64,000 nt of DNA, taken from positions 192,001 through 256,000 of the forward strand of contig CBDFJR010000002.1 of NCBI GenBank assembly GCA_965248535.1. Direction: 5' to 3'. The translations under genes and the position numbers were made by a program. Source of the stretch: Phormidesmis sp. GTDB lineage: Bacteria > Cyanobacteriota > Cyanobacteriia > Leptolyngbyales > Leptolyngbyaceae. The notes below the pieces were generated by a model that saw only the letters and a list, made by a program, of their open reading frames with translations, was not told the origin of the DNA and made no database searches. The stretch's first letter is position 1. Every line of letters starts with the position of its first letter. Of this stretch, positions 27,089 to 32,530 are shown piece after piece.

Positions 27089-28285
27089 TTAATGGCGACT
27101 GTTGCGGATAGGAGTCCCGCAGGGATAGGTAGCCACTGGCTGCTTGGCTGCCCCGACTGATATCGGCTCCGATCCCAGATGAGAAGGCTGCTGTTTAGCG
27201 GCTTCATAATCGGCTTTTAGCTTTGCCAGCAGTTGATCACGGCGATCGTATAACCGCTTTAGAGGGCGAGGCTCACACTGGTTGATCACATAAGCCGTCA
27301 AAATGGGCAGCGCGATCGTGCTGTCGGTGTAGCAAACGACCGTGTTGGGCAACTCTTCGGGATCAACCTTGCCCCAGCTAACGGCTTCGTTGGGGGTTGC
27401 TCCCGACAAACCGCCCGTATCAGGACGAGCATCCGTGACCTGAATGAAGTAATCGTGCCCTCGCTCTTCTAACCCCAGAACTTCGTGCAGTTGTGGTTGA
27501 GTTTGCAGCAAAAAGTTTTTAGGACTGCCGCCGCCAATGATCAGCGCAGCGCTCTTGCCTTCTACACCGGGGAGTTCAGACTCGCGGGCAGAATACACGA
27601 TCGCGGCAGTTTCATTCACATCTAGCATCGGGTCAATGACCAGCTTAGAGCCTTCTAGCGCCATCGCTGCCACATTCATGCCGATCGAGCTATCTCCCGG
27701 CGAAGACGTGTAGATAGGAACGCCACACTCATAAGCAGTTGACAGAAGAGAAGGGTGCTTTACGCCCAGTTGCCGCTCGACTTCAGACACATAGCGACCT
27801 AAGAGATAGTGAAACTCAGCCGTACCCATGCGCTTTTGAAACGGCTCTGCTTTCAAAATTTGCCGAATGAAGGCATCCGTTCCCAGCAGCACATCATAGT
27901 CAAAAATGATGTCATAAATGCGAATGCGACCCTCTTGCCGCAGTTTCACGTCATCCAAAAACGGGCTGCTGGCGTAGAGATCTAGCCCTAGCCCATAGTG
28001 CATATCGTGGTAAAGGTTAGCGCCCGTGCTGATGATCCAATCAACGAACCCGTTTCGCATCAAGGGGGCGAGCACAGAAACTCCTAACCCTGCTGGGGTC
28101 ATGGCACCTGACAGGCTGAGTCCGACGGTGACACCCTCTTTCATCACCTCACGACTGAGAAGGTGACAGATCTCCCGCAGCCGAGCAGAGTTATAGGCTG
28201 TAAAGTAACCGTCAATCAGATCAACAACGCTGATCTCGGCGGGCATGGGGGAGGGTGTGATCTTTTGACTGAGAAGTTTGGACAT
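27089..28285 (-). CDS. speY: Deoxyhypusine-synthase-like homospermidine synthase
   Basis: DHS-family motifs [39 protein letters not shown]. Confidence 0.88.
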
Positions 28286-28538
28286 TCTTTTACTCCAAGA
28301 GAGTTGAGAGGCATAAAGTGAGGGCTAAACAGTGAGGAACAACCCGACACCGGACTGAAATTTTTAGGAAGTCGCCAAAATGCTTTCAAAAATGAAACTG
28401 CACACTTAGAGCGATTCTGAGCAGTAGCCAAGCGAAATCCGCAGAAATTGAAAGATTCGCAAAACCGATTCCAAGCTCATGCTGTGCCACTTGATTATGA
28501 GCAGCAGAGCGCTTTAGCCATTAACTTAAATAATTCCC

Positions 28539-28577
28539 CTAAAAGAGAACCTGACCGATCCAGTTCGGGTCAGGGTT
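28539..28577 (-). terminator. Intrinsic-terminator-like hairpin inside the speY leader (attenuator candidate)
   Basis: Minus strand AACCcTGACCcGA-actgga-TCGGTCAGGTT followed by CTCTTTT, about 255 nt upstream of the speY ATG. Confidence 0.65.
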
Positions 28578-28641
28578 GAGAGCAGCCATGCTTTTGGATG
28601 CTAGAGTCAACCAAAGACGCGAACCTTGAGTTACAGATCGG

Positions 28642-28773
28642 TCAGTTCATACTGGGCGCTTCGCAGCGATCGACCCACGACAGTGCAGGGTCAGATTGCC
28701 GCTTCCGCTTCAACTTCATTTCGAGATACCACAAAGGTCGCCAAGGGTATCCAGTCAAAGAGAAAGATTTCAA
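28642..28773 (-). CDS. Putative leader peptide (uORF) upstream of speY, 43 aa from TTG or 25 aa from ATG 28719
   Basis: Manual translation MKSFSLTGYPWRPLWYLEMKLKRKRQSDPALSWVDRCEAPSMN*; too short for the ORF track. Confidence 0.55.
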   Translation of the reverse strand: MKSFSLTGYPWRPLWYLEMKLKRKRQSDPALSWVDRCEAPSMN

Positions 28774-28809
28774 TGTTCTTTACGCAACCCTTTAGACACA
28801 GACGCTCCA

Positions 28810-28818
28810 ATCCTATCA
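28810..28818 (-). promoter_or_regulatory. Candidate extended -10 element (TGn-TAGGAT) for the speY leader transcript
   Basis: Minus strand TGATAGGAT about 37 nt upstream of the uORF TTG. Confidence 0.4.
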
Positions 28819-28948
28819 TCTATTTTTGAAGATGATGATCATCCAAATGACTGAGACCCGTCAATCACCTATAAAGTGAGGTCTCTCTGTTGGTAGGCTA
28901 AGAGCAGTCAGCGTGCGACGTTTATTCTCCATATTCTTTTGGTATGTC

Positions 28949-29617
28949 ATGACTCTTGACTCTCAACTTCCCGTTAACTCAGATTTGCCCCCTGCTGATC
29001 TCACAGGCGCACTGTCACCAGAAGCAGATCAGCATCGCAGAAAGATGCAACGACGCAAAGAGGTGCAAGATCAGCGTCTGGCAAACATGACTGCCGAAAA
29101 GGGGCTGATCATCGTTCACACAGGAAATGGCAAAGGCAAAACCACGGCGGCTCTAGGAATGGTGCTGCGATCGCTGGGTCACGGCTATAGAGTTGCGATC
29201 GTTCAGTTCATCAAGGGCGCATGGGAGCCTGCTGAGAAAGCAGCATTTGAGCACTGGGGCGACCAGCTTGAGTTTCACGCCCTAGGAGAAGGCTTTACCT
29301 GGGAGACTCAAGATCGCGATCGCGACATTCTCAAAGCGACTCAGGCATGGGAGACGGCGCTGACATTTATCAAAAACCCCGACTTTAAGCTGGTGCTGCT
29401 AGACGAGATCAACATTGCCCTGAAGCTGGGTTATCTGTCTATCGACACCGTAATGGCTGGATTATCAGAAAAGACAGAAGACTCCCACATCATATTGACG
29501 GGTCGAGGAGCGCTTCCAGCCTTAATCGAGCAAGCAGATCTAGTCACAGAAATGACATTGGTCAAACATCCGTTTAGAGAACAGGGTGTCAAGGCACAGC
29601 CGGGAATCGAGTTTTAG
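28949..29617 (+). CDS. cobO: Cob(I)yrinic acid a,c-diamide adenosyltransferase
   Basis: VHTGNGKGKTTAALG, QFIKG, LLDEIN, TGRGA, GIEF end. Confidence 0.95.
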   Translation: MTLDSQLPVNSDLPPADLTGALSPEADQHRRKMQRRKEVQDQRLANMTAEKGLIIVHTGNGKGKTTAALGMVLRSLGHGYRVAIVQFIKGAWEPAEKAAFEHWGDQLEFHALGEGFTWETQDRDRDILKATQAWETALTFIKNPDFKLVLLDEINIALKLGYLSIDTVMAGLSEKTEDSHIILTGRGALPALIEQADLVTEMTLVKHPFREQGVKAQPGIEF

Positions 29618-29909: not shown

Positions 29910-32530
29910 ATGCCGCCTACCGACAACAATTCCTTTGCTACAGCGACCCCAATCACTAACCTGATTGGAACCCCTTCTCTGTCAGGGTCACTCAACGCAG
30001 GGGATCAAACCGATTTTTATCAATTCACCCTTAACGGCAGCAGCAGCACCAGCATTACGCTGACCGATCTCACAGGTAATGCTCGTCTCCGTCTTTTCAA
30101 CAGCGCAAAATCTGAGATTACCCCAAGCACGACAAACAACTCCAAACAGCTTTCAGAAGCTCTCTCGGTCACCCTGGCTCCTGGAACCTATTACATCCAA
30201 ACAGATTTAGACCCTAACGACGCTAACGTGAGTGAGGCTAGCTATAAGCTAAACCTGTCGGTCAGCACTACTGCAACGCTCAATAATTTGGTTTGGCGCA
30301 ACAAAGTAGATGGCGGTTTTTCGGTGGTGCAGACAGATGGCAAAGTTGTGCAATCTAGCGACCCAATCAAGCTGGGCACTACCACCATCAACCTTTCGAC
30401 CGATTGGCAAAGTCAGTTTGGTGACTTGAATGGGGACGGCGAAGACGACATTTTGTGGCGAAACCAAAAAGACGGCACGATCGCCTATTGGATTATGCAG
30501 GGCGGAGCCATTGTGCAAAGCGCCACTTCTTCCTATAAAGTGCCTGCCAGTTGGCAAGCAACCCTGGCAGATTTTAATAACGACGATCGGGCTGATATCT
30601 TCTGGCGTAATAAACAAACGGGTGAAACAGCAGTTTGGCTCACTAACAGCACAGGTTTGGGGTTTAGCAGTGCGGCCCCACTATCCCCTGGGGTTCCTAG
30701 TGGTTGGGACCCAACTCTAGGCGACTTTAATGGTAAAGATGGGAAAAAAGACATTCTTTGGCGTAACAGTCAGACTGGAGAAGTGGCGATCTGGTTGATG
30801 GATGGCACCCGAATTGCCCCCGGAGGCGCAGCACCGCTTTCAAACGTTCCGGGCAATTGGAAGCCTCAGGTGGGTGACTTTAACAAAGATGGAAAAACTG
30901 ACATCTTATGGCGTAACACCCAGAGCGGAGAAGTTGCCATTTGGCTAATCAACGGCAATCAGATCGCCTCTGGAGGAGCGGCACCGCTTCAGAGCGTTCC
31001 GATCGAATGGACGGCTCAAGTGGGTGACTTTGACGGCAACAAAGGAGACGACATTCTTTGGCGCAATAATCAGACTGGGCAGCTTGCTGTCTGGTTGATG
31101 GACGGGACTCAAATTGCTGCTAACGGAGCCGCCGTACGTTGCCCTATAGCGTCCCCACTAGGTTTAAGATCGAGCGCCTGGCCGATTTTAACAACGATGG
31201 CAAAACTGACATTTTTTGGCGCGATCCAGCATCGGGTGAAGTTGCCATTTGGTTGATGAATGGCACAAGCATTTTAGAGGCAACGTCTCTGCCTCAGCGC
31301 TCTAGCAATGACCAATTTGATGGCATTGAGCAACGACGGTTTAAGGCTACGACCCAAAGCATCGGGGGCAAGACAGAGCTGGCTGCCTTTAATATTGGCA
31401 ACCTAAACACGGCTGGGGTCTATGCCGACTCAATCAGCTCTGATGTGCCTGATTACTTCAAATTCAATTTTGCTTTCAGGTCTACGCTGGTTTTATCGGC
31501 GAGTGATTTAACGGGGCAGCCTCTCAACTCGATCGGTCTGCAAGTTTATAAAGCAGGCGCTAACGGTGCCTCATCAACTCTGGTGTCAGACTATGCGACA
31601 CAAATTCTGGAGCCTGGAGACTATTACATCAAAGTCTCTAGCAATCTCGACAATATCAACTATCGGTTAAATGTTGAAGGCAAGCCACAAGTTACAGAAC
31701 TCGTTGGCAACACGTTCACCGGCCCTTCTCAAGTTCTCTTGACCGCAGGCGCTAGTGACACTGATAACCCCGCTACTACGATATCGATTAACTACAGTGT
31801 TAAGAATGCTGGAACGCTCGCTGCTCCCAATGTCAAGGTTTCTTTCTATCTTTCAAGAGATCAGACTTTCAGCCTAGCGGGTGCGGTGCCAGATTTCAAA
31901 GTTGCGGTTGACCAGGTTTTTGACCTTTCACCCAATCAGTCTAACGCCTCAACGCCGCTAACGTTGACTCTGCCTGCCTGGAAAGATAACTTCTGGACAG
32001 TGGATGGAACTTATTATCTTCTTGAGGTGATTGACCCTGACAACACGATCGCTGAGACCAATGAAACCAATAACGTGAGTGTCTTGGCTCTAGACGTTCA
32101 GCAGATTCCGACGATCAACCTGAGAGGGAAGAGTTTGTCTGTAAACGGCACAAGCTTTGCTCCTACTGCGGTTGTCAGCACGACGTTTGTGACTGAAAAC
32201 AACGGGTTCAAGAGTGCAAATACGCCATTCGAGATTAGCTTCTTATTAGCGAAGACTCCTGTCTTTAGTAAGGGTGATTCTAATGCTTGGTCATTGGCGA
32301 CAGCCTCCATCGACGGCGGCATTGCTGGCAAAAAGGACTCAGGGCCTCAAGCCATTAACTTGACGCTTCCTCCCAGAGATTGGAGCGGCTGGGCAAGCCT
32401 GTCTGGGCAGCAGACGTTCTATATTGGCATGATTCAAAACACTAATAGTGCTGTGAATGATGTCAACCCAGACGATAACCAAAACCGCGGTCAGAATATT
32501 GACTGGGTTGCCATCAACGTGACCTTATAG
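29910..32530 (+). CDS. Large surface protein (PPC-like, FG-GAP/VCBS propeller, PPC-like, CARDB-like), frameshifted near 31133-31140
   Basis: Six DFNxDGxxDILWRN-type repeats spanning ORFs 29910-31256 and 31139-32530; PGTYYI/PGDYYI PPC motifs; IDPDNTIAETNETNN CARDB motif. Confidence 0.85.

Follow-up and report, generated by a model that had tools for sequence, protein, structure and literature searches.

A conserved upstream open reading frame and a covarying hairpin linked to homospermidine biosynthesis genes in cyanobacteria: a candidate arrest-type leader peptide

Introduction

What controls the gene for homospermidine synthesis in a cyanobacterium, and does a short open reading frame ahead of it take part in that control? 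The question is raised by a 64,000-nt stretch of DNA from Phormidesmis sp. (GenBank assembly GCA_965248535.1, contig CBDFJR010000002.1, positions 192,001 to 256,000 of the forward strand), hereafter referred to as the window and numbered from its first nucleotide. Its minus strand carries an unannotated upstream open reading frame (uORF) and a long hairpin ahead of speY, a deoxyhypusine-synthase (DHS)-like gene of homospermidine biosynthesis. To our knowledge, the regulation of polyamine synthesis in cyanobacteria is largely unknown, and few nascent peptides that sense metabolites are known to us. In Anabaena, normal diazotrophic growth requires homospermidine (as cited in excerpts of PMC13625781).

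A preliminary description of the locus proposed a leader-peptide attenuator that places speY under polyamine feedback, and suggested that the uORF and two alternative RNA folds be examined for conservation and covariation across cyanobacteria. Here, we compare the region among relatives. With moderate confidence, we interpret the minus-strand block at 28818-28523 as a conserved leader of speY, one that encodes a cis-acting, arrest-type leader peptide for homospermidine synthesis.

Results

The locus and its downstream gene

Reading of the window and translation of its open reading frames located all the elements of the preliminary description at the positions it had given, on the minus strand of the intergenic region between cobO (plus strand) and a gene of 398 codons (Table 1). 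The product of this gene matches PF01916 (deoxyhypusine synthase homologue) in Pfam with 237.6 bits and NF001980 ("homospermidine biosynthesis protein") in NCBIfam with 583.8 bits, above the equivalog cut-off of 450; we therefore assign the gene as speY. Its start codon lies 357 nt from the uORF stop.

The 301-nt leader block occurs once in its own genome, by BLAST and by covariance model alike, and we rejected a repeat or mobile element on this ground. An Rfam scan of 27800-29300 on both strands gave four chance-level matches (E 0.55-7.2), none of which overlaps 28523-28818.

Table 1. Coordinates of the speY leader and associated features in the window
Feature	Positions	Strand	Basis
Extended -10 element TGnTAGGAT, sequence TGATAGGAT	28810..28818	minus	Conserved motif
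Predicted 5′ untranslated region with AAGGUUGC motif and weak, purine-rich Shine-Dalgarno-like AAAGA directly before the start codon	28774..28803	minus	5′ regions of 59 distinct sequences
uORF, 43 codons plus UGA, UUG start, peptide MKSFSLTGYPWRPLWYLEMKLKRKRQSDPALSWVDRCEAPSMN	28642..28773	minus	Open reading frame and comparative coding signature
P1 5′ strand CUGACCGAUCU, containing the stop UGA	28635..28645	minus	Fold and covariation
5′-side internal loop GUAACUCAA	28626..28634	minus	Near-invariant columns, alignment A3
P2 5′ strand GGUUCGCG	28618..28625	minus	Covariation
Variable apical domain, including the GGUUGA/UCAACC helix	28570..28617	minus	Length and sequence differ between species
P2 3′ strand CCCGAACU	28562..28569	minus	Covariation
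P1 3′ strand GGAUCGGUCAG	28551..28561	minus	Covariation
P3, small hairpin GUUCUCU-UUUA-GGGGAAU (28550-28533) with U-rich tail (28532-28523), candidate weak intrinsic terminator	28523..28550	minus	Fold and recurrence
TTTATGC motif, 26-32 nt before the speY AUG	28311..28317	minus	TATG position conservation
speY, DHS-like homospermidine biosynthesis gene, presumed regulated gene	27089..28285	minus	PF01916 and NF001980

The uORF encodes a conserved peptide

We searched a set of 30 speY loci from relatives with an nhmmer profile of the leader block. The block was found upstream of speY in 27 loci, and at the three loci where it was missed the available upstream DNA amounts to just 268, 192 or 0 nt; the uORF thus precedes speY in 27 of the 27 relatives with sufficient upstream sequence. 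A pattern scan with one genome per species confirmed the element in at least 129 genomes, of which the best 80 were analysed in detail. These 80 carriers are all cyanobacteria and include Phormidesmis, Leptolyngbya, Stenomitos, Myxacorys, Oscillatoria, Laspinema, Hormoscilla, Thermosynechococcaceae, Elainella and others.

The frame described at 28773-28642 is present with the translation first given for it. TTG stands at the homologous start in 27/27 of the relatives' loci and in 80/80 further loci, and an internal ATG at codon 19 is absent from several species, indicating that TTG is the start codon. The stop is TGA in 70 of the 80 loci and TAG in the other 10. Among 55 distinct 43-codon sequences, entropy at the three codon positions was 0.44, 0.36 and 1.11, so that the third position is the most variable, and 368 usable pairs out of 600 sampled gave a dN of 0.146 and a dS of 1.544 (dN/dS of about 0.09). 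The two alternative frames are closed by stops in 55/55 and 53/55 sequences, and the length variants (41, 42 and 47 codons) are all in frame. The comparison across cyanobacteria thus returned a clear coding signature, and on this basis we regard the uORF as genuine, coding and conserved.

Constraint is distributed unevenly along the peptide. In 27/27 relatives' loci, the open frame ends in ...DPALSWVDRCEAPSMx with the stop immediately after. Invariant and near-invariant residues fall between L14 and M42, residues 2-8 are variable, and a core of about 28 residues, from about W15 to S41, is common to both of the enzyme contexts described below, in which the first 8 or so residues vary. The pattern can be written W-x-L-x3-L-x-K-R-x-R-x-(C/S)-D-P-x-L-S-W-x-D-x-C-E-(A/G)-P-S-M, with three invariant acidic residues and a conserved C-terminal motif, ...D-x-C-E-(A/G)-P-S-M. 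The residue before the stop differs between loci (N, S, G, T, I, K and others). Near the uORF end there is also constraint at the nucleotide level, codon 41 being essentially always AGU and codon 38 GAA. The amino-acid selection is concentrated over the span expected to fill the exit tunnel, as looked for in a leader of the arrest kind; a conserved core with a variable N-terminus is the pattern expected of a tunnel-interacting peptide. We saw no run of codons for a regulatory amino acid, of the trpL type, in the peptide or its homologues.

The peptide has almost no presence in current annotation. Searches of Pfam (E up to 0.01) and NCBIfam (E up to 1) returned no family, and an ESM Atlas look-up gave no usable match. 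Just nine predicted proteins match it among 5.8 billion protein clusters, and any name given is "hypothetical protein"; gene callers almost never detect the uORF. A complex prediction for two SpeY chains and the peptide, each entered as an alignment and run without controls, scored 0.00 against a mark of 0.32 and carries no weight for or against binding.

The uORF is linked to the enzyme gene

In 80/80 loci, the uORF is followed on the same strand by a speY-type gene, at 225-1094 nt from the stop (median 457). A phylum-wide profile scan of 401 genomes returned 17 strong places in 16 genomes, one weak place that is also upstream of speY, and two spurious matches. Each of the 17 strong places lies directly upstream of a DHS-family gene, 13 before speY-type genes and four before a second family. 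Within the genus, an alignment of the 900 nt upstream of speY from eight species is nearly invariant over 28800-28535, and the flanking spacers vary freely. We have high confidence both in the reality of the uORF and its hairpin and in their link to homospermidine synthesis.

Four metatranscriptomes from one study contain relatives of the region, 85-95% alike, as assembled contigs only. They cover the uORF-hairpin block and speY; contigs of this kind carry no information on where transcripts end, on their strand or on their level, and some may stem from carried-over DNA. One 1300-nt contig (X4, record 25) spans the uORF block to speY with 167 unlike letters in the variable spacer, from which we draw no conclusion on co-transcription, and another (X3, record 24) extends across the promoter toward cobO. 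Spacer bins that the contigs leave uncovered are uninformative because the spacer is not conserved.

We also noticed a weak, divergent relative of the peptide about 640 nt upstream of speY in another genome (locus L055 in G395; profile E 8.9e-4; ...YPWRRSWELEVSWKQQRGTEP...). Its open frame is longer and lacks the C-terminal CE-x-PS motif, the hairpin is missing as well, and it may be a decaying copy.

A covarying hairpin overlaps the end of the uORF

The long nested hairpin of the preliminary description pairs at the positions proposed: GAACUGACCGAUC (28648-28636) with GAUCGGUCAGGUUC (28560-28547) in an outer helix, GGUUCGCGUC (28625-28616) with GACCCGAACU (28571-28562) in a middle helix, and GGUUGA (28612-28607) with UCAACC (28579-28574) in an apical helix. 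It is the minimum-free-energy fold of 28660-28530, at -47.7 kcal/mol compared to -33.6 +/- 3.9 for 200 shuffled sequences, none of which was as stable (z -3.6). The uORF stop UGA (28644-28642) lies inside the 5′ strand of the outer helix, as had been described.

Comparison among relatives bore out the outer and middle helices, which covary and which we refer to as P1 and P2; the apical helix is present in the window and sits in a part that varies in length and sequence across species. P1 has the consensus UGACCGAYCU/GGRUCGGUCA and P2 the consensus GGUUCGC/GCGAACU, with a conserved internal loop that holds GUAAC. This two-helix hairpin is always found downstream of the conserved PSM codons, has an apex of very variable length, and measures about 66-129 nt as a whole. 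P1 comprises 11 pairs (92.4% of cells paired, four pairs changed on both sides) and P2 comprises eight (92.1%, five pairs changed on both sides). In the 24-sequence alignment, 92.3% of the cells of P1 and P2 together are paired, compared to 19-47% with the partners slid by 1-3 columns. Double changes affect 9 of the 19 pairs (40 cells), and none of 500 column shuffles matched the observed covariation.

As the stop codon lies in the P1 5′ strand, a ribosome at the end of the uORF must open P1. The UGA forms the first bases of P1 in 70/80 loci. The frame extends four codons to a UAG in the internal loop in the Oscillatoria/Laspinema group, and five codons to a UAA in the internal loop at the second-family locus of genome G028. 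P1 begins at an unchanged distance after the PSM codons also where the stop has moved in this way, suggesting that P1 is coupled to the position of the ribosome at the conserved peptide end and not to the stop codon itself.

A covariance model of P1-P2 matches 9/9 speY-type uORF loci, 1/4 second-family uORF loci, and 0/38 DHS-family loci without the peptide. An alternative reading is that the transcript is mainly a regulatory RNA, a small RNA or a dual-function small mRNA, whose P1-P2 hairpin and conserved loop bind a protein or RNA and whose peptide is secondary. The GUAAC internal loop and the P2 arms are indeed conserved in sequence besides pairing, a AAGGUUGC-like motif recurs in the 5′ untranslated region (UTR), and the relatives' metatranscriptome contigs cover the block, which is weak evidence. 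However, the protein-coding signal is the strongest one at the locus, and three second-family loci (L052, L053 and L058) retain the peptide without the P1-P2 hairpin, as judged with the covariance model. The element has no Rfam match, and neither sequence nor model searches of the genome found further copies or targets. We consider a mainly regulatory RNA improbable.

A second enzyme family and a compact architecture

The second family accounts for four of the strong places (in G415, G170 and G028, and the second place in G309), where the downstream gene encodes a DHS-family enzyme whose identity to speY is only about 35%. Three of the four enzymes, when scanned, match NF002699 (1,9-bis(guanidino)-5-aza-nonane synthase) with 583-593 bits, above the cut-off of 500. 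Enzymes of this type belong to an agmatine-coupling route to homospermidine (excerpts of PMC13625781). G309 carries both uORF-enzyme pairs.

Two of these loci, L052 and L053, are compact. Their uORF starts with ATG behind a TGnTATAGT element, and its last codons (CCUAGUCC) and the stop-containing strand pair with GGUUAGCAG...GGACUAGG, a strand that abuts the AGGAGG of the enzyme gene, whose AUG lies 68-75 nt past the uORF stop. The uORF and the enzyme gene must share one transcript here. By analogy, this layout is the geometry of stalling-controlled translation, as in erm-type leaders. It suggests that stalling would open the ribosome-binding site of the enzyme gene in the compact architecture, which would fit induction by substrate. 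A single peptide core combined with differing RNA read-outs is what is expected if the peptide is the sensor.

P3 and the proposed terminator switch

The preliminary description proposed that the long hairpin acts as an antiterminator, and that a ribosome pausing at the uORF stop frees its 3′ strand, so that a short hairpin, CCUGACC (28573-28567) with GGUCAGG (28555-28549), followed by CUCUUUU, terminates transcription in negative feedback by polyamines. Both folds can be drawn in the window, and the stop codon does lie in the outer 5′ strand. The comparative data, however, contradict the switch. The short hairpin exists in the window and its two closest relatives only; its 5′ arm is not kept in L012-L016, that is, in five of the seven other sequences of the same genus, or in other lineages. 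A simple terminator scan made no call on it, its 11-nt loop exceeding the range of the scan. When the P1 5′ strand was masked in the predicted fold of this region, P2 and the apex stayed, the P1 3′ strand was left single-stranded, and the short hairpin did not form.

The U-rich run has a different owner. CUCUUUU makes up the 5′ arm and loop of a separate recurring hairpin, P3, whose stem has seven pairs, three of them G-U, and whose U-rich tail, UAUUUAAG, is interrupted. With the criterion of a stem of at least five pairs followed by at least four U in 8 nt, a P3-like hairpin is present in 32/76 homologues, and the mean score was 13.8 compared to 9.4 (standard deviation 5.0) for shuffled tails. 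The arms of P3 differ by lineage yet stay complementary, UUCUCU...GGAGAA being the usual form. P3 appears to be a better candidate terminator than the short hairpin, but a weak one.

In addition, the long hairpin ends at the same 3′ position beside this U-rich run, which leaves it no obvious role as antiterminator. Masking the P1 5′ strand tends, if anything, to raise the predicted downstream hairpin, as the switch would have it, though that hairpin is P3. Two exclusive conserved folds, one of them a terminator with a U-tract, define the classical terminator/antiterminator arrangement and were not found. Comparison of the homologues revealed no conserved alternative pairing that couples P1 to P3. 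Antitermination by the long hairpin as first drawn is, in our view, very improbable.

Since uORF codons 4-7 (UUCUCU) are the same as the P3 5′ arm in the genus, their pairing with the P3 3′ arm was considered as a separate antiterminator. A permutation test on the 59 distinct sequences was negative (mean duplex energy -3.47 observed versus -3.59 permuted; 396/500 permutations at least as good), and we rejected this candidate.

Promoter, 5′ UTR and spacer

The TGn-TAGGAT element that had been noted at 28818-28810 as promoter-like is widely conserved: TGnTAnnnT occurs at most 70 nt upstream of the TTG in 78/80 homologous loci, mostly 30-43 nt before it. The extended -10 is kept in 8/8 same-genus sequences and is visible in the rows of all 27 relatives. 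From the spacing, transcription of the leader is predicted to start at about 28805-28802.

Several features of the 5′ UTR and promoter region are recorded here in their own right. The AAGGUUGC motif (28782-28790, minus strand, in the window; also in the 5′ UTRs of L059-L138) is kept in distant lineages about 14-21 nt before the UUG and almost duplicates the P2 5′ arm, AGGUUCGC. It may serve as a ribosome-binding element with long spacing, or the P2 3′ arm may pair with it as an alternative; by eye, we saw no covariation of the motif with P2. A pairing of 5′-UTR GCGUAAAG with CUUUAUGC before speY was dropped, the 5′-UTR motif being lost outside the genus. On the plus strand, the cobO frame is listed from a GTG at 28913, and the genus alignment (window 28913-28952) is conserved only from an ATG at about 28950 onward. 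This ATG is probably the true cobO start, which would enlarge the shared promoter region.

In the spacer before speY, the TATG of the TTTATGC motif stands at -30 in 54/76 distinct sequences and at -34 in eight more, and the sixth position of TATGCN varies (T, C, G). Some lineages, those of the Thermosynechococcus type among them, lack the motif. One interpretation is a -10-like element, to which we return below; the other is a conserved upstream AUG (28314-28312), out of frame with speY, from which a frame of 32 codons would run across the speY start. Separately, about 60 nt ahead of the speY start codon, the species of the genus share a small hairpin, AGUCCG-GUGU-CGGGUU (28340-28355, minus strand), with loop and G-U changes; at the family level it is not conserved.

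These observations bear on the main rival explanation, that of a separate gene for a small protein. In this reading, the uORF would have a promoter of its own and P3 as its terminator, with P1-P2 stabilising the 3′ side of the RNA. Its product of 43 residues would be a trans-acting protein that might, for instance, bind or regulate the DHS-like enzyme or a different step in homospermidine metabolism. The conserved promoter of the uORF, the hairpin and U-run after it, and the long, variable spacer with a possible speY promoter motif before the enzyme gene all fit such a gene. Purifying selection over the whole core is as compatible with a protein that folds or binds as with a tunnel peptide, functional partners often stay adjacent to an enzyme gene, and in G309 each enzyme family has its own copy, as co-evolving partners would.

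A separate unit, however, need not stay upstream and on the same strand over very distant lineages, as the uORF does in 100% of cases (80/80, 27/27 and 17/17). The invariant UUG start in speY-type loci would be odd for a stoichiometric partner, and one peptide core serves two enzymes just about 35% identical. The stop or the codons after PSM lie within a covarying helix and third positions are invariant at codons 38 and 41, which points to the position of the ribosome on the RNA; in L052 and L053, the uORF end pairs beside the Shine-Dalgarno sequence of the enzyme gene. A protein acting in trans is thus an unlikely explanation in our estimate, though one to be taken seriously.

Neighbouring genes

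Further along the plus strand, 29910-32530 holds two large open reading frames of 448 and 463 aa with many ...DILWRN..GE.A.W... repeat units. They look like repeat-rich secreted or surface proteins.

Discussion

A proposed mechanism

We hypothesize that the leader unit works in cis as follows. The extended -10 promoter would drive a short transcript carrying the UUG-initiated, 43-codon uORF. The peptide sequence, and not mere codon content, is under strong selection, and the nascent chain may act within the exit tunnel as an arrest or pause peptide, with a metabolite of the homospermidine pathway (agmatine, putrescine or homospermidine) as the probable trigger. On reaching the C-terminal D-x-C-E-(A/G)-P-S-M codons or the stop, the ribosome would stay in place and cover the P1 5′ strand, so that the P1-P2 hairpin could not form and downstream events would change. 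In the lineage of the window, likely targets are read-through of P3 and its U-run or the stability of the leader-speY transcript; in the compact variant, the target would be the accessibility of the Shine-Dalgarno sequence before the enzyme gene. We infer the stalling and its ligand, as well as the sign of the regulation and the downstream read-out. Product-feedback control, as first suggested for this locus, is equally possible as substrate induction.

Several results weigh against this cis-acting leader. Modelling of the folds (n = 58) predicts that P3 forms with the P1 5′ strand masked or free (mean probability 0.51 unmasked versus 0.64 masked); masking shifts its probability by more than 0.3 upward in 11 cases and downward in one, and in the window the probability is 0.03 unmasked and 0.02 masked for the register scored. 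With so inconsistent an effect, no RNA switch is demonstrated. P3 and the U-run could simply end an independent small gene; the spacer from the uORF to speY is long (357 nt here, 225-1094 nt in relatives) and poorly conserved, and the TTTATGC motif may be the -10-like element of a promoter belonging to speY itself. Residue 43 and the stop context vary, which speaks against strict TnaC-like termination arrest. Finally, the uORF is not universal. In family f22, 40 of 45 genomes have a DHS-family gene and 0 of 45 have the peptide, and we found no uORF in 15 fetched speY upstream regions from families f22, f21, f37 and f40 (best E 0.21). The lack of phylum-scan matches in these families is therefore real at that sensitivity, and with many speY genes lacking it, the uORF is lineage-restricted.

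We note that the speY genes without the uORF (L169-L183; f22 and others) share another element, ...GATAACATTAGAT(G/T)CGG..., about 40 nt before the AUG. This suggests that these lineages are under a different mode of control.

Relation to known systems

The closest parallel in kind is SpeFL-speF of E. coli and Salmonella, an ornithine-sensing system in which a short, unannotated uORF likewise precedes a polyamine-biosynthesis gene and the peptide sequence matters. There, the ribosome held at the uORF end controls speF by shielding a Rho site (excerpts of PMC12360218), whereas here the uORF end is built into a conserved hairpin. The genes also differ, speF encoding ornithine decarboxylase and the gene here a DHS-like homospermidine enzyme. 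The present peptide has no match in Pfam or NCBIfam, though no direct sequence comparison with SpeFL was made. Cyanobacteriota lack Rho (excerpts of PMC12360218), and the read-out of SpeFL and TnaC is therefore unavailable, so that one based on RNA structure or translation would be needed. TnaC-tnaAB shares with our locus a conserved leader peptide, a UGA stop (in 70/80 loci here) and a ribosome that would be held at the uORF end, TnaC undergoing tryptophan-dependent arrest at its UGA stop codon (excerpts of PMC12360218). It differs in that, here, the residue before the stop varies, 10/80 loci have a UAG four codons downstream, and there is no Rho.

In leaders of the erm, cat and SecM type, the Shine-Dalgarno sequence of the following gene is sequestered in a hairpin until a stalled ribosome opens it. 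The L052 and L053 loci resemble these, in that the last codons of the uORF pair with sequence abutting the AGGAGG of the enzyme gene. In the window, by contrast, the enzyme start is 357 nt away, the hairpin is clear of its ribosome-binding site, and no antibiotic or secretion signal is involved. The odc1 (uORF-25-1) motif of alpha-proteobacteria combines a structured RNA with a conserved, short UUG-start uORF before a polyamine gene (excerpts of PMC8632094), as does the element described here. There, however, a pseudoknotted hairpin precedes a uORF of just 11 codons that overlaps the start of the main frame (same source), compared to a 43-codon uORF followed by its hairpin here, in another phylum, before another enzyme, and with no sequence relation.

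Codon-run attenuators such as trpL and hisL also have a leader open reading frame followed by hairpins and a U-run. They differ from the present element, which has no run of regulatory codons, is conserved over its whole core, and yielded no conserved terminator/antiterminator alternative. In eukaryotes, the polyamine-pathway genes AMD1 and AZIN1 are under the control of polyamine-responsive uORFs with conserved peptides; these belong to another domain of life, depend on scanning, and have unrelated peptides. None of the closest systems (SpeFL-speF, TnaC, erm-type leaders and odc1) appears to be related in sequence, and each differs in its read-out.

The preliminary description knew of no cyanobacterial system of this kind. 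In agreement, searches of the literature on the topic and for literal peptide strings found no description of the element, with subscription journals and supplements outside the search, and the excerpts of PMC13625781 contain no mention of a leader, uORF, riboswitch or attenuator.

Implications

The conserved leader peptide and its structured RNA are probably a new nascent-peptide sensor controlling polyamine synthesis, as judged from comparative sequence data. The best-understood bacterial sensors of this type, TnaC and SpeFL, depend on Rho (excerpts of PMC12360218). As a missing annotation, the element adds a gene for which just nine calls exist among 5.8 billion protein clusters. The idea lends itself to direct tests: the peptide of 43 residues is conserved across at least 129 genomes and has clear invariant residues, its RNA platform covaries, and two architectures occur in nature. 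If confirmed, the element would provide a new small-molecule-responsive translational switch for cyanobacterial synthetic biology.

More tentatively, as a possibility somewhat short of probable, the element may be the founding member of a cyanobacterial family of metabolite-sensing arrest peptides. A chain with acidic residues would capture a cation of the pathway (agmatine, putrescine or homospermidine) in the tunnel, and the paused ribosome would reprogram an RNA platform, P1-P2-P3 in one form and a Shine-Dalgarno-masking helix in another, setting homospermidine synthesis without Rho. As with riboswitch aptamers, in which one sensor is likewise paired with different expression platforms, a single peptide sensor would thus have been reused for two enzyme families.

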